Source of the DNA: a virus | Lineage: Monodnaviria; Loebvirae; Hofneiviricota; Faserviricetes; Tubulavirales; Inoviridae | Virus record (IMG/VR): IMGVR_UViG_2718218102_000001 | Reading direction: 5' to 3' (one strand) | DNA length: 8,349 bases | Shown: positions 496 through 8,349 of the stretch, piece by piece | Layout of the letters: the number at the start of each line of letters is the position of its first letter | Numbering within the stretch: the first letter of the stretch is position 1 | The notes under the pieces: model-generated | What the model was told of the DNA's origin: nothing | Seen by the model: the letters and a program-made list of their open reading frames with translations, nothing else | Database searches by the model: none | Made by a program: the position numbers and the translations under genes

Positions 496-729
496 ATGCA
501 ATTTTTCACATCCAGCGATACTGTAATGTTATGTGCGAAGACCTGCGATCGCTGTGGTCGCCATGCGAAGACGGTGGTAGATGACATTGAGTTCAATGAG
601 TTTCTGTCTGTTAATCACTTAGCTGGATACGGTTCAATTTTTGGTGACAGTAATCGCTTAAAACTGGATTTATGCCAACATTGCCTGAAAGACGTCCTGG
701 GCCAGTGGATTACGGTCTGTGACCAATGA
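496..729 (+). CDS. hypothetical small protein with two CxxC pairs (77 aa), possible zinc-binding
   Basis: ATG at 496 preceded by GAGGAG with about 7 nt spacing. Protein contains CDRC and CQHC about 40 residues apart. Stop TGA 727-729. Confidence 0.5.
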   Translation: MQFFTSSDTVMLCAKTCDRCGRHAKTVVDDIEFNEFLSVNHLAGYGSIFGDSNRLKLDLCQHCLKDVLGQWITVCDQ

Positions 730-765: not shown

Positions 766-863
766 TTGGTGCGCATAATGTTCGACTCGTTATGTTGAAA
801 AGGCCGCTGCGATAATTGAATCCCGCAGCGGCCTCTTTAGCATAACGTCATTGTGCGAACCAA
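766..863. other. dif-like Xer recombination site pair in inverted orientation around a palindrome (candidate folded attP or prophage left junction)
   Basis: 768-778 GGTGCGCATAA equals the E. coli dif XerC arm, and with TG at 779-780 gives a 13-nt exact match to dif. 790-800 TTATGTTGAAA matches the dif XerD arm TTATGTTAAAT at 9/11. The spacer 779-789 is 11 nt, not 6. 801-811 and 824-834 form a perfect 11-bp inverted repeat with a 12-nt loop. On the minus strand 861-835 reads GGTTCGCACAA-TGACG-TTATGCTAAAG, a second dif-like site. In single-stranded form 768-778 pairs with 851-861 (9/11) and 790-800 with 835-845 (8/11), leaving an asymmetric 11 vs 5 nt internal loop. Confidence 0.6.
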
Positions 864-872
864 GTTTTGAAT

Positions 873-1205
873 CTAATAATCTGAATCCATAACTTCGACC
901 ATTTCATCAACATTTTGTTGGAATTGATAGTTTAAATGATTCCAGCCAAAATCACCGGGTTCAAATATATAAGTGTTCCCTTTCTTCTTAGATGTTAGTT
1001 CAAAATAATACTCTGTTGAGCTATTGGCGTTTAAAGTGATGTCATACCAACCAAGATATTTAACTTCCAGCACAGCCATTAGCTGGCTATTGACTTCATT
1101 AAAGACATGCGTCTTACTCATACCAGGGACGGGTTTTCCGTAGATGAAAACCCCATCTTGTGCAGTCCTAACCCTAACCCCATAAACCCTTGATTTTTTT
1201 GCCAT
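873..1205 (-). CDS. hypothetical soluble protein (110 aa), last gene of minus-strand accessory operon
   Basis: ATG is the reverse complement of 1203-1205, stop TAG is the reverse complement of 873-875. Starts 11 nt downstream of the preceding minus-strand gene. The + strand ORFs over this region look like antisense artefacts. Confidence 0.5.
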   Translation of the reverse strand: MAKKSRVYGVRVRTAQDGVFIYGKPVPGMSKTHVFNEVNSQLMAVLEVKYLGWYDITLNANSSTEYYFELTSKKKGNTYIFEPGDFGWNHLNYQFQQNVDEMVEVMDSDY

Positions 1206-1216
1206 TTCAACACTCT

Positions 1217-1570
1217 CTATTTTGATAAGTCATTTCTCATGGACTCGATTAGTTTATTAAAAGCATTGTTTCTTTCTTCTCTCGGACCATCGTTTGTATC
1301 AACTATTTTTTGTGCATAATGTGTGACTTGTTTTGAACCAAACAATGAGCAATGTGTTTGCCACAAGGCATATTCTTTAGATGCTTCGTCCGATGGTGAG
1401 ACCGCTGATTTATGGATTGATGACAATAATCCTAAGTACGCTTTTCTTTTTTCTTCATATAGGCGCTCTTCTTTTTTAGACTTTTTATTTAAAAGGTTTG
1501 TAATGGTTGAATTCAACATCGTCCCTATGCCTAATCCCCCAACAATTCCTAATATCATGTTGTAATCCAT
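1217..1570 (-). CDS. hypothetical membrane-anchored protein (about 117 aa)
   Basis: Start chosen at the ATG giving MDYNMILGIVGGLGIG..., 7 nt after the stop of the upstream gene. The track ORF extends to 1630 but would overlap that gene by 53 nt. Predicted N-terminal transmembrane helix followed by a charged, probably helical domain. No clear RBS, so the start is uncertain. Confidence 0.45.
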   Translation of the reverse strand: MDYNMILGIVGGLGIGTMLNSTITNLLNKKSKKEERLYEEKRKAYLGLLSSIHKSAVSPSDEASKEYALWQTHCSLFGSKQVTHYAQKIVDTNDGPREERNNAFNKLIESMRNDLSK

Positions 1571-1577
1571 AATATTA

Positions 1578-2000
1578 TTACCAGTAATATGAGTTTCTTC
1601 TGTGCCACCAATAAAGCAGGCCATATCCAACGATAAGAATCCCTAAAAACATAAGAGACATTCCCCAGCCAGTTCCATACCACGAAATCATATCATAGAA
1701 AACTAGCCCGCCCATTTCACGAACTCCGGCAGCTTCTTTAAGAATTGGTTTGAATACCGGAATCAGAAAGGCGATAGCCAGCGGTGTACCCCATCGAACA
1801 AGGCCGGTTTCCATTTTGATCCCGAAAAAGATCCCGCCACCGACAGCAAGAAGCCAAAAAATCAGGTTTGGCGCTGTTTCCAGAGCTGTTTGCCATTCAA
1901 CATCGAATGTCTTCATCAGCCAGAGAACGATGACTAAGGAGAAAATGGCTACACCACCAAAAACTAGTTCGACGCTACTTATTTCATTATTTCTGTTCAT
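1578..2000 (-). CDS. hypothetical small integral membrane protein (140 aa, about 4 predicted TM helices)
   Basis: ATG is the reverse complement of 1998-2000, stop TAA is the reverse complement of 1578-1580. Four hydrophobic segments and a Trp/Tyr-rich C-terminus. AAGGA lies immediately upstream with very short spacing. Confidence 0.55.
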   Translation of the reverse strand: MNRNNEISSVELVFGGVAIFSLVIVLWLMKTFDVEWQTALETAPNLIFWLLAVGGGIFFGIKMETGLVRWGTPLAIAFLIPVFKPILKEAAGVREMGGLVFYDMISWYGTGWGMSLMFLGILIVGYGLLYWWHRRNSYYW

Positions 2001-2041
2001 TCCTTCGATCCTTTTATTCGTTCAAAAATCGCGCAATTTAA

Positions 2042-2072
2042 AAACGTGCAGTGTAGGTAATACTGCACGTTT
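2042..2072 (-). terminator. candidate rho-independent terminator or attenuator on the minus strand, between the regulator gene and the accessory operon
   Basis: Perfect 11-bp inverted repeat (2042-2052 with 2062-2072), 9-nt loop. On the minus strand the stem is followed by UUUUUAAAUU. Lies 17 nt downstream of the stop of the 2089..2271 gene. Confidence 0.5.
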
Positions 2073-2088
2073 GTACCATTCGTGGTAC

Positions 2089-2271
2089 TTAATCCTTTTG
2101 TTTGGCAGACATGAGATCTTCTGCTGCATCTTTAGAGTAGTTATCAATCAGATAACCTAAAATCTCTGTCCATGTAATTGTTTTTCCTAGTTTTACACTG
2201 GCATTTATAGCCAGTCGTTCTAGTTTCATTTTTCTTTCTTCCGTCACGTTATAAGTCGTGCGCTTTGCCAT
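2089..2271 (-). CDS. putative ribbon-helix-helix (Arc/MetJ/CopG-like) DNA-binding regulator (60 aa), divergent from gII
   Basis: MAKRTTYNVTEERKMKLERLAINASVKLGKTITWTEILGYLIDNY fits a beta-strand, helix, G-x-T turn, helix pattern. Placement is divergent from the replication gene, as for repressors of other filamentous prophages (for example RstR of CTXphi, by analogy only). Confidence 0.5.
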   Translation of the reverse strand: MAKRTTYNVTEERKMKLERLAINASVKLGKTITWTEILGYLIDNYSKDAAEDLMSAKQKD

Positions 2272-2440
2272 TTTTTACGCTCGTTCAATGCAATATTTGA
2301 AGTGAGTATACATGCTCATGAACTCATATCATCCAAGCCTCTTGAACTCACTAGCTCACTGATGTAATGTTAAAACACTAATGAACTACTGAACTCATGT
2401 GTTAGTAAGTCGTCATTTTTGCAATTTTGAGGATTTATTC
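2272..2440. promoter_or_regulatory. divergent promoter/operator region with iterated motifs; possible (+) strand origin
   Basis: Four copies of TGAACT(C/A) at 2319, 2343, 2382 and 2390. CTCACT is repeated at 2347 and 2355. Candidate sigma70 promoter for gII: TTGAAC (2342-2347), 17 nt, TAATGT (2365-2370). GAGGA at 2429-2433 lies 7 nt before GTG 2441. Confidence 0.4.
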
Positions 2441-3493
2441 GTGATCGATTGGCTTACCGGGATTTTCCCTTGCACACACAAACCGCTTCCGGCGGGGAGT
2501 GTTGTCAGCGTTGATGCTGACGGTGCAATTGAGTGGGAAACCGTTAAGCGACTGACTGTTCGCGGCTCGCATGAAGCAACGATGAAAGTACGATCGATAG
2601 GATCTAATGGCGAAGGTAAAGCGACACATTTGTACATTGATGGTAATCCGTCCAAGTTTTTGCAGGGGCATTCTGTTGTTGGGTCGGATGATATACAAGG
2701 GCTCATGTTGACGGTCTATGCCAGGATTTTATCCTTATTGAATATTCCTCATGATTTAGCGTCTTATAAAGCTGTTATAGCAGGTCAGTATAAAATTTCA
2801 CGTGTTGACATTAATTACATGTATTCATTATCTACGCTAGAAAATGTCAGATCATGGCTTTATGCCGCCGAATTTAAAGCTAAAACACGCCATGGTCGCG
2901 CATGTGGGAAAGGCGGTACAGTTTATTTAGGTAAAAACTCCCGTCGATGGAGTCTGAAATTTTATTCAAAATATGATGAACACGTTTCGGGTAAAAAAGG
3001 GCACCAGATAGCCGAAGATTTTGTACGAGCCGGGTTACTGGACTGGACGAAAGATAAATTACGTATTGAATTAACATTAAGAACAACTGAGCTTATTGAT
3101 TTAAATTTAACGCTTGGCGCTAACTGGAATATGAAAACACCACGTCAATTATTCTCTGAATATGTAGGGAGAATAGAAATGAATCAGAATGCTATTTTAA
3201 GTGATGAAAAAATAACGAAACTGCCAAGAAAAATACAGTCAACTTATTTACTTTGGAAACAAGGGGCTAACATGAAAGAAATGTTACCTCATAACACTTT
3301 TTATCGCCATAGAAGAGAATTGCTTTCGTTCGGTATCGATATTAATTTCTATTGTGATTCACCAGACTCTAATAACGTTGTTCCGCTAATAAGAACGCTG
3401 GAAGCCAAGCCAGTGGAAATCCCCTTATGGATTTATGAGAAAGGTTTTATTTTCGATTACAACCGTATTTCGCACGCCAGTAGCTGGCATTAA
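2441..3493 (+). CDS. gII: replication initiation (rolling-circle nickase) protein, Ff gene II-like (about 350 aa)
   Basis: N-terminus (M)IDWLTG resembles Ff pII MIDMLVL; KFLQGHSVVG resembles KVLQGHNVFG; C-terminal NNVVPLIR resembles NNVVPLVR (M13 recalled from memory). GTG 2441 chosen over GTG 2399 because of the GAGGA RBS. Stop TAA 3491-3493. Confidence 0.75.
   Translation: MIDWLTGIFPCTHKPLPAGSVVSVDADGAIEWETVKRLTVRGSHEATMKVRSIGSNGEGKATHLYIDGNPSKFLQGHSVVGSDDIQGLMLTVYARILSLLNIPHDLASYKAVIAGQYKISRVDINYMYSLSTLENVRSWLYAAEFKAKTRHGRACGKGGTVYLGKNSRRWSLKFYSKYDEHVSGKKGHQIAEDFVRAGLLDWTKDKLRIELTLRTTELIDLNLTLGANWNMKTPRQLFSEYVGRIEMNQNAILSDEKITKLPRKIQSTYLLWKQGANMKEMLPHNTFYRHRRELLSFGIDINFYCDSPDSNNVVPLIRTLEAKPVEIPLWIYEKGFIFDYNRISHASSWH
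3179..3493 (+). CDS. gX: gene X-like product from an in-frame internal start within gII (104 aa)
   Basis: In-frame ATG at 3179 preceded by AGGGAG with 7 nt spacing. Context IEMNQNAILSDEK aligns with the Ff pX start region DSMNIYDDSAVLD. Confidence 0.5.
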   Translation: MNQNAILSDEKITKLPRKIQSTYLLWKQGANMKEMLPHNTFYRHRRELLSFGIDINFYCDSPDSNNVVPLIRTLEAKPVEIPLWIYEKGFIFDYNRISHASSWH

Positions 3494-3504
3494 AGGAAAG
3501 TAAT

Positions 3505-3822
3505 ATGTCTAATTATGGTCTTTTCGTTAAGGGTAAAATGTTGGGAGCCCGCCAACGTAATAAAGTTAATGGTCAGGGCTATTATAATGAAATTGGTATT
3601 GGCCTTGAAATACCTGATGGTTTTGGTGGTACAAAGCAGGATCAAATTATTATTCGAGTTTCTCAGACTCTCGTTAACGCAGGTCTAATGAACCAGGCGA
3701 ATGCTTTCATTGGGAAATTAGTTCAAATTCCTGTCTATGTCCGTGCGTGGTCAATGGAGGGTAGGGAAGGTGTAACTTATAATGTTTCTTCCGATGGTGG
3801 CATCGCAGAGATCAAAGGTTAA
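3505..3822 (+). CDS. putative ssDNA-binding protein in the gene V position (105 aa)
   Basis: ATG 3505 with AGGAA RBS at 6 nt spacing, 11 nt after the gII stop and 2 nt before gVII. Assignment is by position only; I see no obvious similarity to Ff pV. Confidence 0.5.
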   Translation: MSNYGLFVKGKMLGARQRNKVNGQGYYNEIGIGLEIPDGFGGTKQDQIIIRVSQTLVNAGLMNQANAFIGKLVQIPVYVRAWSMEGREGVTYNVSSDGGIAEIKG

Positions 3823-3824
3823 AT

Positions 3825-3911
3825 ATGGACGATGTTATTCAAATTTTGATAGCGTCTGGCATCGTTATTTCTTTTGGCCTCGGCGCGATTACTGCGGGGG
3901 TCTTTCGTTAA
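3825..3911 (+). CDS. gVII: minor coat protein pVII-like (28 aa)
   Basis: Not in the ORF track (too short). Hand translation gives MDDVIQILIASGIVISFGLGAITAGVFR, hydrophobic with a GxxxAG motif like Ff pVII. Stop TAA 3909-3911 overlaps the next ATG (TAATG). Confidence 0.6.
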   Translation: MDDVIQILIASGIVISFGLGAITAGVFR

Positions 3912-4006
3912 TGTATATCGTTTATTTCTTCGGGGCTTATACCTTTGGTTTTGCCCTTTTCTATGCGGTCGGTTCATTTAAATCATTTTCTGACCGATTA
4001 ATGTAA
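3911..4006 (+). CDS. gIX: minor coat protein pIX-like (31 aa)
   Basis: ATG 3911 overlaps the gVII stop. Product MYIVYFFGAYTFGFALFYAVGSFKSFSDRLM is hydrophobic and ends RLM, like Ff pIX. It corresponds to the C-terminal part of track ORF 3782..4006. Confidence 0.6.
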   Translation: MYIVYFFGAYTFGFALFYAVGSFKSFSDRLM

Positions 4007-4025
4007 CCTTAATGGAGTTATTCCT

Positions 4026-4268
4026 ATGAAAATTCTGTCTACTGTTAAATATAAAGTTGCTCTGGCTTCAACTGCGCTTTTTGTTTCTGCAAGTTCTTTT
4101 GCGGCTGAAGGCGCTACAGGTGGTACTGATTATGCAGGTCAGGCAATGGATGCTTTGTTGACTCAGGCAAATGATCTCATTGGTAAAGTATGGCCTGTTG
4201 TTGTGGCTGTGGTTGGCGCTGGGCTTGCCATTCGTATTTTCAAAAAATTCTCTTCAAAAGCGGTTTGA
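4026..4268 (+). CDS. gVIII: major coat protein pVIII precursor (80 aa)
   Basis: GGAG RBS 8 nt upstream. Signal peptide ending SFA|AEG, acidic N-terminus, hydrophobic core, basic C-terminus [12 protein letters not shown] typical of Ff/IKe-class major coat proteins. Confidence 0.9.
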
Positions 4269-4277
4269 ATTTCACTC

Positions 4278-4300
4278 AGGGGCACTCGTTGCCCCTTTAT
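4278..4300 (+). terminator. rho-independent terminator after gVIII
   Basis: AGGGGCA (4278-4284), loop CTCGT, TGCCCCT (4290-4296), then TTATT. Ff phages have a strong terminator at this position (established knowledge). Confidence 0.65.
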
Positions 4301-4314
4301 TAAAGCGGGTTACT

Positions 4315-5640
4315 ATGAAAAGGAAAATATTAATTCTTTCCGCTGTCCTCATTTCTCCTTTTTCACATGCTGAGTCATGGGAAAGCATTACTAAATCCAC
4401 TTATCAAAGCTCTGCCTACGCTGAAAGTAAGCAAATAACCAATCAGGATGGCTCTAAGTCAACGGTTTACTATATTGATGCTGCTATGCAGGCCTCCGCT
4501 TGTCAGGGTGCTAAATCCAGTGCTCAGAGTGTATTTACTCAGGTTAAACCAACTTATGAGGGTATCTGGCCTGATTCTGAATTCCGTCTTGTTTTTACTG
4601 GTGATTGTACTTACAGCGATTCACCAGGGCAGAAGGATAAATATTGGTCTTTAACGGCTTATATTGTTGGTGATATTCAGCGTTCTGTTCCTGATGAAAA
4701 ACCTACTGACCCGACACCAGAAGAAATTTGTGAAGCGAAGCCGCCAGAAGAAGGTGTATTTAATAATGTTGATTCATATGATGGTGGTCGTTATATCTAC
4801 TATAACGGCTGTGAATATGAGGCTACTGGTGTCATTGTTTGTCAGGGTGATGGTACTGTTTGCGCTGCAACATGGAAGCCTACAGGTACTGTAGCTGACC
4901 CCTCTGATAAACCCTCAACCCCCCAAAATGGTGGTGGTGAGTCTGGCGGTGGTGAGTCTGGCGGTGGTGAGTCTGGCGGTGGTGAGTCCGGTGGCGGTAG
5001 TTCTGGCGGTGGTGAGTCCGGTGGCGGTAGTTCTGGCGGTGGTGAGTCCGGTGGCGGTAGTTCTGGCGGTGGTGAGTCCGGTGGCGGTAGTTCTGGCGGT
5101 GGCTTTAGTGGTTCCAGTCTTTCTAAAGGTGATATTCAGTCTGCTATCGAAGGTGCTTCACCCAAAATAGCCAGCGATATTCATGATAAATTAACGGAGA
5201 AAGACACTTCATCAGATGATAAAAAAAATGCCGATGAACAAACTAGGAATAATATAAATCGTCTTGACGATTCCATTAACAATCTTACGCGGGGGGCTGG
5301 CCGTTTTGCTGACCCTTCAGGTGGTGATTCTCGTTATGGAAAGGGCGACTCTGAATTAGATGGCGCTTCTACTTTGGCTGATTCTGAATTGGGAATTGAA
5401 AAGGATTCTCACGGTGCTTTATGGGAAGCATTTTTAAATAAAGGTGCTATGCTGCCTAATTTACCCAATGGTAACGGCTGCTCTGATTTTATTATTTTTC
5501 CCGGAGAGGTTTATCAGATTGATATTGGTTGCGATAAATTACTGACTATTAAAGATGTTCTTTCATGGGTTTTTTATTGCCTTACGTTCTGGTATGTCTT
5601 TACTTCTTTAACTTCATTGCTTCGCAAAGGGGGTGAGTGA
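4315..5640 (+). CDS. gIII: minor coat / adsorption protein pIII (about 441 aa)
   Basis: Start set at the in-frame ATG 4315 giving signal peptide [19 protein letters not shown]; the track ORF begins upstream inside gVIII. Cys-rich N-terminal domain, long Gly-rich linker, and a C-terminal anchor resembling the M13 pIII C-terminus (CDK...YVF...LRxK). Stop TGA 5638-5640 overlaps the gVI ATG. Confidence 0.9.
4936..5100 (+). repeat. in-frame tandem repeat, 11 copies of a 15-nt unit, encoding the Gly-rich pIII linker
   Basis: GGTGAGTCTGGCGGT x3 (4936-4980), then a 30-nt unit GGTGAGTCCGGTGGCGGTAGTTCTGGCGGT x4 (4981-5100). Encodes alternating GGGES and GGGSS. Confidence 0.9.
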
Positions 5641-5981
5641 TGCCTTTATTATTAGGTATTCCTGCATTGTTGCGTTTTCTTATTGGTCTTGTTCCTTTGT
5701 TTATTGGCTATGTGGCGAGTTTTTTAGCTCGACTTGCTACCAGAACAGGATTAATCGCCTTTGCATTGGTCGCATTAATTACAACAACTGTTACGCTTTT
5801 AATGCAGTACCTTGCTGAGGTCATGTATAACGGTTTACCTGCTGATTTCTCCCATTTAATGGCGTCTGTATTGCCTGACCATTTTCAGGCGTGTGTTAAC
5901 GTTATTATGGTTACTCGTATCAGTGTTTTTGTTTTCGATTTAAAACAAAAATTTCTTGATTATGCAAACAGGGTGATTTAA
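5640..5981 (+). CDS. gVI: minor coat protein pVI (113 aa)
   Basis: [17 protein letters not shown]... resembles M13 pVI MPVLLGIPLLLRFLG... (recalled). ATG 5640 overlaps the gIII stop (TGATG); the track used GTG 5637. Stop TAA 5979-5981 abuts the gI ATG. Confidence 0.85.
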   Translation: MPLLLGIPALLRFLIGLVPLFIGYVASFLARLATRTGLIAFALVALITTTVTLLMQYLAEVMYNGLPADFSHLMASVLPDHFQACVNVIMVTRISVFVFDLKQKFLDYANRVI

Positions 5982-7076
5982 ATGGCGGTTCATGTAGTAA
6001 CAGGCAAATTAGGCTCAGGCAAGACACTTGTTAGTGTTTCCAGAATACAGGAAAGACTTGCTAAGGGTTGTCCTGTTGCCACTAATCTTGATCTTAAATT
6101 GCATAATATGCCTATGGTTGGGCGTTATGCGAAAAAAACGCGCGTTATTCGCATTCCTGACAAGCCTTCATTAAATGATTTACTTGCTATTGGTATTGGG
6201 AATACATCTTACGATGAATCCCGTAATGGCCTCCTTGTACTTGATGAATGTGGTACTTGGTTTAATTCCCGCTCATGGGGTGATAAAGACAGACAACCTG
6301 TTATTGACTGGTTTTTACATGCCAGAAAATTAGGCTGGGATATTATATTTTTGATTCAGGATATTTCGATAATGGATAAGCAAGCTCGTCTGGCGCTTGC
6401 TGAGCATGTTGTTTATTGTCGCCGTTCAGATAAATTAAACATTCCTTTTGTTGGCTCCATTATGAATTTGGTTTCAGGGGCGCGATTTTCTTTACCAAAG
6501 GTACACTTTGGCATTGTCAAATATGGTGATAACGTTAATTCAATTACTGTTGATAAATGGATATACACCGGAAAATCATTATATTCCGCCTACAATACAA
6601 AACAGGTTTTTACTGATAACTATCCGCATGGTGCTTATTCGCTTTTGCCACCATTTATCACGCACGGTCAATTTTCTGTTCACAGAGGATTTAATTATTA
6701 TATGCGCCTCACGAAAATTTATTTTCGCAAATCGAACCGTCTTATATTAATGCTTTCTTTTTTGGCGCTGGGGCTTGCGCTTGGTTTCTGGCTCCAGTCT
6801 GGAAAGAATGTTGATGAAATCTCCGCTATTAAATCTGCTTATGCTGAACAGGCGAGGGCGGTAACGCCTGATTCGTCCAGTGACTTACCCCGACTTTCTA
6901 TTAATTCTTTTTCACAACTTGGCTTTGACGTTTCCGTTACGTTTGTTGATGCAAAAGGTACGAAATATCAGTATTTTGATTTGATTAAAGATGGTTATTC
7001 CGTTGATATTAAAGATGCCTGTCGTGTTGTTATTAGAAAAGGCCGTTATTTACAGACTGTTATCTGTCAGGAGTAA
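5982..7076 (+). CDS. gI: assembly ATPase pI (Zot-like), 364 aa
   Basis: Walker A motif GKLGSGKT at residues 8-15. Long colinear similarity to M13 pI (MAVYFVTGKLGSGKTLVSV..., LLVLDECGTWFN..., FLHARKLGWDIIFL...; recalled). C-terminal membrane segment. Confidence 0.9.
   Translation: MAVHVVTGKLGSGKTLVSVSRIQERLAKGCPVATNLDLKLHNMPMVGRYAKKTRVIRIPDKPSLNDLLAIGIGNTSYDESRNGLLVLDECGTWFNSRSWGDKDRQPVIDWFLHARKLGWDIIFLIQDISIMDKQARLALAEHVVYCRRSDKLNIPFVGSIMNLVSGARFSLPKVHFGIVKYGDNVNSITVDKWIYTGKSLYSAYNTKQVFTDNYPHGAYSLLPPFITHGQFSVHRGFNYYMRLTKIYFRKSNRLILMLSFLALGLALGFWLQSGKNVDEISAIKSAYAEQARAVTPDSSSDLPRLSINSFSQLGFDVSVTFVDAKGTKYQYFDLIKDGYSVDIKDACRVVIRKGRYLQTVICQE
6702..7076 (+). CDS. gXI: pXI-like product from an in-frame internal start within gI (124 aa)
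   Basis: In-frame ATG at 6702 (pI residue 241, the same position as the M13 gene XI start), just before the TM segment LILMLSFLALGLALGFW. AGAGGA lies 12 nt upstream. Confidence 0.5.
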   Translation: MRLTKIYFRKSNRLILMLSFLALGLALGFWLQSGKNVDEISAIKSAYAEQARAVTPDSSSDLPRLSINSFSQLGFDVSVTFVDAKGTKYQYFDLIKDGYSVDIKDACRVVIRKGRYLQTVICQE

Positions 7077-7083
7077 TATTATT

Positions 7084-8349
7084 ATGCGCTCTGTTATTGT
7101 TGCTTTTTTATTTGCCTGTTCATTCTGCGTTTCTGCTGAAACTGTTAATTTAAACAATTCATCTGTTCGCTCATTTGTTCAGTGGTATTCTTCAAAAACT
7201 GGCAAGCCTGTTATTGTTAATCCTGATATTAAAGGAAACGTAACCGTATTTAATGCTGATGTTAATCCAACAAATATTGATGATTTCTTTAAGTCTGTTC
7301 TGAATGCTAACGGTTTTGTCATGCTTTCTGGCAATCCTGCGGTAGTCTCTTTGCCGTCTAAATTACCTTCACAGATGGTTTCGGATTCCGATGATTCTGA
7401 TAACCAGTCTTATGATACTTTTCCTTCTGAGCCATCTTACCAGCCAGTACCTGTGGCGCTTACGGTCAGAAATTTTAAGCTGACAAAAGTTAGATCGTCC
7501 GATGTTCAGCAACTGATTAAAATTTATCTTGATTCTAATGGTGGTGGTAATGTCGTGGATTATCCAGGCAATAACTCGCTGATTGTTTCTGCGCCTGACG
7601 AGCTGCTGCCGGTTCTGTCCGATTTTATCAATTCTGTGGATGTTGCCCGCGATCAGGTTCTCATTCAGTCGCTGATGTTTGAAACCAGCTTGTCTGATGG
7701 CGTTGATTTATCGTTTGCGGCAGGTTCTGCATCCGGTCATAAGGTTGCGGGGGGCTTTAATACTTCTGCACTGGGTAGCGCTCTTTCTACGGCGGGCGGT
7801 TCTTTTGGTATTTTTGATGGTAACGTGTTGGCGCTGTCTCTGCGTGCTGTCCAGAGTAATTCACGCTCTAAGGTGATTTCAACGCCGCGTATTCTTACTC
7901 AGTCTGGTCAGACTGGTTACATTTCCGTAGGTAAGAATGTGCCGTTTATCACCGGAAAGGTAACGGGCGAATCTGCCGGGGTAAATAATCCGTTTCAGAC
8001 TATCGAGCGTCATGATGTTGGCGTTTCTCTCAAGGTAACGCCTGTTGTCATGGGTAACGGGCAACTAGTTCTGACTATCGACACTCGCGCTGATTCAATC
8101 AGCAATGATGATCAGGCATCCGATATTATTACTAATCAGCGCCAGATTCAGACGACAGTCCAGATTAAGGATGGTCAGACGTTGTTATTGGGGGGGCTTA
8201 TCGATTCATCGTTTAGCAATGCTGAGCGTTCAGTTCCAGTTATAAGTAAAATTCCTCTTATAGGCTGGATTTTCAGTAGCAAGGCAGACAGCAATGAACA
8301 GCGTATTATGTATATTTTGCTTACAGCACATATCATTCGTCCACTTTGA
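7084..8349 (+). CDS. gIV: outer-membrane secretin pIV (about 421 aa)
   Basis: Start set at ATG 7084 giving signal peptide MRSVIVAFLFACSFCVSA|ET; the track ORF starts upstream inside gI. Strong similarity to M13 pIV throughout (NVPFITGKVTGESAGVNNPFQTIER, DGQTLLLGGL, SKIPLIGWIFSS). Stop TGA 8347-8349 is the window end. Confidence 0.9.
   Translation: MRSVIVAFLFACSFCVSAETVNLNNSSVRSFVQWYSSKTGKPVIVNPDIKGNVTVFNADVNPTNIDDFFKSVLNANGFVMLSGNPAVVSLPSKLPSQMVSDSDDSDNQSYDTFPSEPSYQPVPVALTVRNFKLTKVRSSDVQQLIKIYLDSNGGGNVVDYPGNNSLIVSAPDELLPVLSDFINSVDVARDQVLIQSLMFETSLSDGVDLSFAAGSASGHKVAGGFNTSALGSALSTAGGSFGIFDGNVLALSLRAVQSNSRSKVISTPRILTQSGQTGYISVGKNVPFITGKVTGESAGVNNPFQTIERHDVGVSLKVTPVVMGNGQLVLTIDTRADSISNDDQASDIITNQRQIQTTVQIKDGQTLLLGGLIDSSFSNAERSVPVISKIPLIGWIFSSKADSNEQRIMYILLTAHIIRPL

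Follow-up and report, generated by a model that had tools for sequence, protein, structure and literature searches.

Gene III of the filamentous phage genome analysed here, an 8,349-nt stretch referred to below as the window, raises two questions. The first is what kind of receptor-binding head its product pIII carries, residues from about 20 to 200 having been set down in the preliminary description as a divergent, cysteine-rich receptor domain that could not be aligned to pIII of M13. The second is whether the repeat-built, glycine-rich linker behind this head differs in copy number between isolates and, if it does, what such a difference would mean for the protein and for the phage.

The open reading frames of the window follow the usual inovirus gene order. 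The core set of IKe and I2-2 (pII, pV, pVII/IX, pVIII, pIII, pVI, pI and pIV) is present and in order (Table 1), and the RefSeq annotation of an identical prophage agrees with both the set and the order. Prophages that are 98–100% identical to the window over 86–92% of its length are present in at least 44 complete Escherichia coli genomes, and a 7,938-bp circular "plasmid" (7.9 kb) of Salmonella enterica, which looks like a replicative form, also matches. In E. coli BH100N, the prophage is flanked by hipBA on one side and by an exact dif site of 28 nt on the other. Tandem copies, at least three in ECONIH2 and two in RIVM_C029670, adjoin hipBA in both genomes. When compared with the BH100N-type prophage, the window turns out to be a circular permutation of it: positions 1–781 pick up at the gene IV stop and extend into dif, of which they include the first 14 nt, positions 2043–8349 form the prophage core, and the minus-strand accessory module in between (864–2042) differs from that of BH100N. 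At the nucleotide level, the whole window shares only around 115–190 nt, in gene IV, with the IKe and PEar phages.

The E. coli prophage matches, the dif site, the tandem copies, the Salmonella circle and the GGGES motif of the linker fit the published UPΦ viruses (PMC7307601), and the element is therefore a UPΦ-type filamentous phage of the Inoviridae, a relative of the Lineavirus phages IKe and I2-2 that integrates at dif. According to Shapiro & Putonti (2020, Virus Evolution 6:veaa030; PMC7307601), the UPΦ viruses resemble IKe and I2-2 and form tandem repeats inserted at dif in E. coli, Salmonella, Citrobacter, Klebsiella and Yersinia; IKe itself does not integrate (PMC7307601). With UPΦ901, the window has in common the integration at dif, often in tandem, the likeness to IKe and I2-2, and E. 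coli and Salmonella as hosts; the UPΦ901 query used in PMC7307601 measures 7,560 nt against the 8,349 nt of the window. UPΦ viruses also contain two additional group-specific ORFs (h1 and h2) after gene IV, where the IKe genome is intergenic (PMC7307601). In the window, ORFs 70–378 and 496–729 directly follow gene IV. A Pfam search with the six accessory ORFs, these two among them, had no significant match; for ORF 496–729 there was a hint of a zinc finger, below the threshold. An Rfam scan of the whole window returned zero matches at E ≤ 0.1.

Table 1. Coordinates of the genes of the window, of the pIII domains and of the hairpin preceding gene III.
Feature	Position (nt)	Strand	Residues or motif	Basis and remarks
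pII	2399–3493			ORF list
pV	3505–3822			ORF list
Small pVII/pIX ORFs	between pV and pVIII in gene order			ORF list
pVIII	4026–4268		stop codon 4266–4268	ORF list
GC-rich hairpin	4279–4301	+	GGGGCA-CTCGT-TGCCCC, then TTTATT	between gene VIII stop and gene III start; read from the sequence
Gene III, attachment protein pIII/G3P, IKe type	4315–5640	+	441 aa	tblastn, RefSeq
Signal peptide	4315–4371	+	1–19	aligns with the annotated 19-residue IKe pIII signal peptide; low pLDDT
N2, IKe-type pilus-binding domain	4372–4698	+	20–128; Cys pair C63, C98	4eo0, PF21443
Pro-rich hinge	4699–4722	+	129–136; KPTDPTPE	joins N2 to N1; IKe alignment
N1, TolA-binding domain	4723–4899	+	137–195; Cys 139, 166, 176, 183	4eo1, PF05357
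Pro/Ser-rich spacer	4900–4929	+	196–205	precedes the repeat; fixed left anchor for all alleles
Gly-rich linker repeat array	4930–5109	+		Tandem Repeats Finder, unit table, pLDDT, allele comparison
C-terminal domain	5119–5637	+	269–441	helical; hydrophobic anchor at residues ~377–438 (5443–5628)
pVI	5637–5981			ORF list
pI	5982–7076			ORF list
pIV	6991–8349			ORF list

The product of gene III is 53–55% identical to pIII of IKe, I2-2 and PEar over its full length (tblastn). This relationship is visible at the protein level only, as a megablast search of gene III against the phage collection gave no match. The gene is 100% identical to one in E. coli BH100N, annotated by RefSeq as "attachment protein" (WP_065377559.1), and the exact protein is present in public databases as P0068. 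An in-frame ATG further upstream, at 4171, where the ORF list places the start, was rejected: homology to the IKe protein sets the start at 4315, from where the sequence begins MKRKILIL, like the MKRKIIAI of IKe. An ORF in another frame (4928–5170) was also rejected as a gene and is a by-product of reading the repeat out of frame. The hairpin that precedes gene III is probably a partial transcription terminator, which would lower the expression of pIII, and at the corresponding place the IKe record annotates a "stem loop structure, pot. transcription termination". The hairpin was not among the calls of a promoter and terminator scan of positions 4000–5700, which reported a single weak terminator-like site, within gene VIII, fewer than in shuffled sequences.

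In a global alignment, pIII and its IKe and I2-2 counterparts are colinear over their whole length, signal peptide included, with nine of nine cysteines aligned and with 48%, 75% and 52% identity to IKe in the N2, N1 and C-terminal domains, respectively. The order of signal peptide, N2, hinge, N1, a single Gly-rich linker and C-terminal domain is the same as in these Lineavirus proteins, and the linker occupies the same position. N2 matches the IKe pilus-binding domain (PDB entry 4eo0) with a phmmer E-value of 1.4e-26 and the Pfam family PF21443 ("G3P, pilus binding domain") over the full model length (E 6.3e-26, 91 bits against a cut-off of 27). For the following domain, residues 130–195 match the IKe TolA-binding domain (PDB entry 4eo1) with an E-value of 4.3e-25, and N1 scores 25.8 bits with PF05357 (cut-off 20.8). 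The structures of these IKe domains were reportedly described by Jakob et al. in 2012 (Mol Microbiol).

An AlphaFold2 model, built on an alignment of 47 sequences, has pLDDT values of about 90 for N2 and about 85 for N1, with a dip to about 75 in the hinge. Searched with Foldseek, the modelled N2 superposes on 4eo0 with a TM-score of 0.96 and an r.m.s.d. of 1.0 Å (47% identity), and the modelled N1 on 4eo1 with a TM-score of 0.88 and an r.m.s.d. of 1.1 Å (73% identity); on the N1–TolA complex of IF1 (PDB entry 2x9a), the TM-score of N1 is 0.87. Structure prediction thus leads to characterised receptor-binding domains, those of IKe, and the supposedly divergent region aligns with IKe pIII from end to end. 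The C-terminal domain is helical in the model, contains three conserved cysteines and caps the virion tip together with pVI. The match of pIII to PDB entry 8b3o has an overall E-value of 1.1e-21, and residues 377–438 align with residues 342–403 of the fd protein, the region seen in the cryo-EM structures of the tip (PDB entries 8b3o, 8ixk and 8jwx), so that the Ff-like anchor noticed in the preliminary description is borne out. In residues 206–270, the pLDDT falls below 30, and this stretch, the linker, is predicted to be disordered.

The relationship to the Ff phages (M13, fd and f1) is of a different kind. For residues 20–128, neither sequence (phmmer) nor fold (Foldseek) searches give a counterpart in the Ff N2 domain; the Ff structures match through N1 only, where residues 137–193 align to fd/M13 N1 (PDB entries 1fgp, 1g3p, 2g3p and 1tol) with E-values from 1e-10 to 1e-15, that for 1fgp being 1.4e-10. 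The reported failure to align the region to M13 therefore holds for its first part and not for its second, and it probably arose because the IKe-type plan differs: its order is N2, N1, linker and C-terminal domain, and its N2 has a fold unrelated to Ff N2. In Ff G3P the order is N1, linker 1, N2, linker 2 and C-terminal domain, and the F-pilus-binding N2 has another fold; here N2 comes first, and there is one long Gly-rich linker and none between N2 and N1. The two types share a homologous N1 and carboxy-terminal anchor, and Ff G3P, five copies of which are at the virion tip, likewise has flexible linkers, of the EGGGS/GGGS type. It has to be considered whether the first 200 or so residues could be a novel receptor-binding domain, unrelated to those characterised in other pIII proteins. 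The lack of detectable similarity between residues 20–128 and Ff N2 would be expected in that case, but the highly significant matches to the crystallised pilus-binding and TolA-binding domains of IKe, in sequence as well as in fold, refute this reading, to which we give practically no credence.

A database search yielded 67 pIII homologues, from Escherichia, Salmonella, Citrobacter, Yersinia, Pantoea, Proteus, Providencia and others. Among the distant homologues, N2 is the least conserved folded domain, with a mean identity of 36% compared to 67% for N1 and 68% for the anchor; on the level of sequence, this fits a role of N2 in receptor contact. Nearly all of the homologues, about 60 from Enterobacterales, contain a Gly-rich segment of 18 to 63 residues at the same position, the segments in homologues being delimited by a maximal-segment score. 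The repeated unit is specific to the lineage: the closest relatives have GGGES, a clade of about 79% identity has GGGDT, and IKe and I2-2 have GG(G)DT/ST/SS. Among 22 proteins sampled from the two closest protein clusters, there are 17 distinct linkers of the GGGES type, between 24 and 73 residues long.

In the window, the tandem array at 4930–5094 is made up of eleven exact, in-frame 15-nt units, arranged as three units of 15 nt followed by four of 30 nt, exactly as the preliminary description had it; both Tandem Repeats Finder and a table of the units agree. The encoded peptide consists of seven GGGES and four GGGSS units. The first unit is GGTGGTGGTGAGTCT and the second and third are GGCGGTGGTGAGTCT; the 30-mer GGCGGTGGTGAGTCC-GGTGGCGGTAGTTCT is then present in four exact copies (4975–5094), and a degenerate twelfth unit, GGCGGTGGCTTTAGT, encodes GGGFS (5095–5109). 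Tandem Repeats Finder reports a period of 15 nt with 11.6 copies (4929–5102) and a period of 30 nt with 5.8 copies (4930–5102, 95% matches, score 286). All repeated 15-mers and 30-mers of the 8,349 nt fall within positions 4933–5102, which shows that the array is not due to chance. The linker of IKe, by contrast, is composed of imperfect GG(G)DT/ST/SS units over 51 amino acids, and its repeats are far less pure at the DNA level, with a best Tandem Repeats Finder score of 101. The g3p of UPΦ901 has the same GGGES repeat in a Gly-rich region between the amino- and carboxy-terminal domains, and the same hypervariability in repeat number; the window allele, set beside this published account, has the 30-nt compound unit four times and ends in GGGFS.

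An 801-nt query spanning the repeat finds matches in 47 E. coli genomes, the matched span varying between 678 and 819 nt. Between fixed DNA anchors, the linkers of 15 alleles, all from complete E. coli genomes, measure 63, 66, 93, 111, 123, 141, 147, 153, 156, 165, 171, 180, 186, 192 and 204 nt. The alleles differ by whole units of 12, 15 or 30 nt: the 15-nt GGGES unit occurs one to eight times (one to nine over all related alleles), the 12-nt GGSS unit zero to five times and, in the lineage of the window, the 30-nt compound unit one to four times. As these units are all multiples of three, the length of the linker shifts and the reading frame is kept, and the 15 intact alleles are all in frame, encoding proteins of 400–447 amino acids. 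A phase-variable contingency locus, switched on and off by the repeat, can be rejected on these grounds; the locus is a length polymorphism. In an alignment of 16 alleles, 57 columns vary within the linker and 11 elsewhere in pIII.

The rate of these changes is apparent from five alleles that do not differ by a single SNP in 1,415 flanking nt and yet have repeats of five lengths: 186 nt (window and BH100N), 156 nt (BH100 MG2014), 171 nt (FDAARGOS_1257), 141 nt (Combat2C1) and 111 nt (ECONIH2). It is clear that the length changes much faster than point substitutions accumulate, and that the repeat number is not invariant among isolates. Between the substrains MG2014 and MG2017 of BH100, a single 30-nt unit is the sole difference in the 1.6 kb compared. 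Units inside one array are identical at synonymous sites, and the codon variant that has been amplified differs from lineage to lineage (TCT-GGC-GGT-GGT-GAG or TCC-GGT-GGT-GGT-GAG), which indicates expansion and contraction at the DNA level and not selection on the peptide alone. The expectation that the array would be a substrate for slippage or recombination, and vary in copy number between isolates, thus agrees with the strong variation seen across related genomes.

Low-complexity repeats are difficult to assemble, and the differences might in the main be artefacts of sequencing or assembly, with the true number nearly constant. Many public entries for pIII are partial proteins of about 190–215 amino acids, ending where the repeat starts, which suggests that short-read, draft assemblies break or collapse there; copy numbers from short reads are to be distrusted, and some apparent differences could be assembly errors, the two assemblies of the one strain BH100, 30 nt apart, being a case to consider. 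For the alleles compared, artefact is nevertheless a very improbable explanation. Their genomes are of complete level, and the intact alleles differ by whole in-frame units with zero frameshifts. The same allele recurs in independent genomes (a span of 756 nt, for instance, is common to 11 records), the tandem prophage copies within one genome carry one allele (ECONIH2 and RIVM_C029670), and the arrays differ from each other in the order of units and in codon variants as well as in length. Variation of this kind has also been described by others for isolates of their own (PMC7307601).

The reading that best accounts for these results, and that we consider very probable, is that pIII is an IKe-type attachment protein of a UPΦ phage, with a disordered linker that serves as a tether and in which gain and loss of units alter the length but not the frame, with nearly neutral effect in a tolerated range. 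By analogy with IKe and Ff, N2 would catch the tip of a retractile pilus of the conjugative type, and retraction of the pilus would bring N1 to TolA in the periplasm; the C-terminal domain would then insert into the inner membrane for entry of the DNA, and would also end assembly. The C-terminal domain would anchor five copies of pIII in the virion tip, and the linker would tether the receptor-binding head flexibly to the virion, letting several of the five heads reach a receptor. Whole units would be gained or lost by replication slippage or by unequal recombination between the direct repeats, a mechanism suggested by the pattern of alleles.

Most likely, the length of the linker is nearly neutral within the tolerated range, which is about 21–73 residues in the alleles seen. 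The IKe linker diversified rapidly in the laboratory, and a naturally arisen variant with an extended Gly-rich region had no observed fitness effect in a test that did not extend to host range (Bruno & Bradbury 1997, in the summary given by PMC7307601). It is on this one study, as summarised by the UPΦ authors, that near-neutrality rests (PMC7307601). The opposite case, in which the linker length is under selection, the copy number setting how far the five pIII heads reach or how avidly they bind, perhaps to match a particular pilus type or the span to TolA in a given host envelope, and so serving as an evolvability device for host range, appears unlikely to us. Gene III is by far the most variable gene of the UPΦ viruses, whose authors raise this possibility themselves (PMC7307601), and the range of linker lengths is bounded, with none shorter than about 21 or longer than about 73 residues, which suggests some constraint. 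The gene of the co-receptor, tolA, has a variable intragenic tandem repeat in E. coli; this tract is likewise in frame and minisatellite-like, with a copy number that varies between strains and alters the length of an extended or flexible segment, although in a different protein and with a different unit (PMC3477136). Against selection, the IKe study, as far as its summary goes, found no fitness effect of a longer linker (PMC7307601), alleles one to five units apart share an identical phage backbone and come from similar clinical E. coli, and the receptor-binding N2 is almost invariant inside the UPΦ901-like clade, with 4 variable columns.

As to the receptor, the function of N2 is predicted from its modelled fold, at an identity to IKe N2 of only 48%. 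The N2 domain being IKe-type, it is reasonable to suppose, from sequence, that the F pilus is not the one used, and to this extent the earlier proposal of a different pilus or receptor specificity was well founded; 48% identity is too low to name the actual pilus. IKe uses IncN (and IncI2) pili (PMC7307601). For UPΦ, the authors suspect IncI pili, because an IncI plasmid was present in every one of their own E. coli strains infected with UPΦ901, and they failed to obtain new infections (PMC7307601). We see little likelihood in a copy number that tunes infectivity or host range, the tether being matched to the pilus or to a TolA of variable length, or in a UPΦ N2 that recognises a pilus other than IncN/IncI2.

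Both the IKe-type receptor head and the repeat variation were already known, having been published in 2020. The g3p gene of UPΦ varies mainly in the number of GGGES repeats, with 95 variants in 229 genomes (Shapiro & Putonti 2020; PMC7307601), and UPΦ901 differs from sister isolates by one "GGGES" repeat (PMC7307601). A literature search for later work on UPΦ found citing reviews only, and a survey of plasmid-dependent phages contained nothing on IKe-type g3p. What is added here is confirmation of the IKe-type head at the level of the fold and a measurement of repeat change against SNPs, and no new kind of feature. The importance of the locus is limited in this respect: the divergent receptor domain is the well-characterised head of IKe type, and the instability of the repeat is real and documented for UPΦ. 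In practice, the repeat breaks or distorts short-read assemblies, with the result that annotations of gene III often read partial or "hypothetical". For the design of phage display on IKe-type scaffolds, it is useful to know that linkers of about 21–73 residues are tolerated in nature. For the UPΦ phages themselves, the repeat is a fast-evolving marker, which separates prophages that are otherwise identical.

Between gene VIII and gene III, the latter encoding the attachment protein pIII, lies a GC-rich hairpin followed by a T-rich tail. A potential terminator is annotated in the related phage IKe at the matching position; a consensus scan made no call at the hairpin in the window. Further downstream, reading the gene III repeat in another frame gives rise to an open reading frame of 80 amino acids. 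Since each repeat allele would give it a different length, this frame almost certainly does not represent a gene, and it was rejected as a candidate.

The repeat itself appears to disturb the assembly of gene III, and possibly also its automatic annotation. Two assemblies of substrains from one clinical E. coli strain, BH100 substr. MG2014 (L004) and BH100N substr. MG2017 (L003), differ over the 1.6 kb of gene III compared by a single 30-nt unit and nothing else, which represents either a laboratory-timescale change or an assembly difference. Many of the public pIII entries in the protein clusters of the homologues P0001 and P0002 are labelled partial, containing about 186–217 amino acids and ending where the repeat starts, and several full-length alleles carry the RefSeq label "hypothetical protein" instead of "attachment protein".

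Some prophage copies of the gene are altered or unusually placed. In the homologue P0062 (508 amino acids, from an E. coli TPA assembly), secretin domains (PF03958 and PF00263) and a G3P pilus-binding domain are present in one predicted protein. In E. coli PEC422 (L016), gene III is a pseudogene with a truncated carboxy-terminus and a different gene downstream. Both are rearranged or decaying prophage copies. A prophage with two attachment-protein genes is located on NZ_CP141085.1 (E. coli KE48 "plasmid unnamed1", 385,579 bp; L017), a prophage-bearing replicon of 385 kb labelled as a plasmid; its linker, at 63 nt, is the shortest among the alleles seen.

The window, which ends exactly on the stop codon of gene IV (position 8349), is circularly permuted relative to the prophage: in the BH100N chromosome, position 8349 continues into positions 1–781. 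Rather than an arbitrary genomic slice, the window probably represents a complete phage genome in circularised form. The content of the accessory module varies among prophages that are otherwise near-identical: at its position BH100N contains open reading frames other than those of the window, E. coli ECONIH2 contains a third set, and the circular form from Salmonella contains a Doc-family toxin. A Pfam search of the accessory open reading frames of the window returned no match for any of them.

Coordinates of the features discussed (window positions unless a locus is named)
Feature	Position	Strand	Remarks
ORF for CxxC...CxxC protein	496-729		
Junction hairpin	766-866	+	folded as single-stranded DNA
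Module common to phage and plasmids	772-863; locus L021 2501-2592 and 3958-4292		
Accessory module	864-2042		minus-strand ORFs 873-1205, 1217-1630, 1578-2000
GC-rich hairpin with T-rich tail	4279-4301	+	between gene VIII and gene III
Alternative-frame ORF	4928-5170	+	over gene III repeat

The prophage junction is placed at a second hairpin. Folded as single-stranded DNA, this region forms one long hairpin with a dG of -30.2 kcal/mol (z -6.9 against shuffled sequences), a stability equalled in none of 200 shuffles. In it, a dif XerC-arm sequence, GGTGCGCATAATG, pairs with an inverted partner, CATTGTGCGAACC, beyond which an internal loop leads to a XerD-arm-like stem, TTATGTTGAAA, and then to a GC-rich terminal hairpin. 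This structure resembles the folded (+)ssDNA attP of XerCD-using phages of the CTXΦ type.

Matches to the hairpin region, 72–92 nt long with 90–96% identity and unannotated there, are found in about 430 plasmids, mostly of E. coli and Klebsiella, 393 of which are predicted to be conjugative. In the plasmid pINF078-VP, the match is located 1.4 kb from a homologue of the phage open reading frame for a CxxC...CxxC protein, which is probably h2, one of the two UPΦ group-specific frames after gene IV. UPΦ phages and conjugative plasmids have a module in common here.
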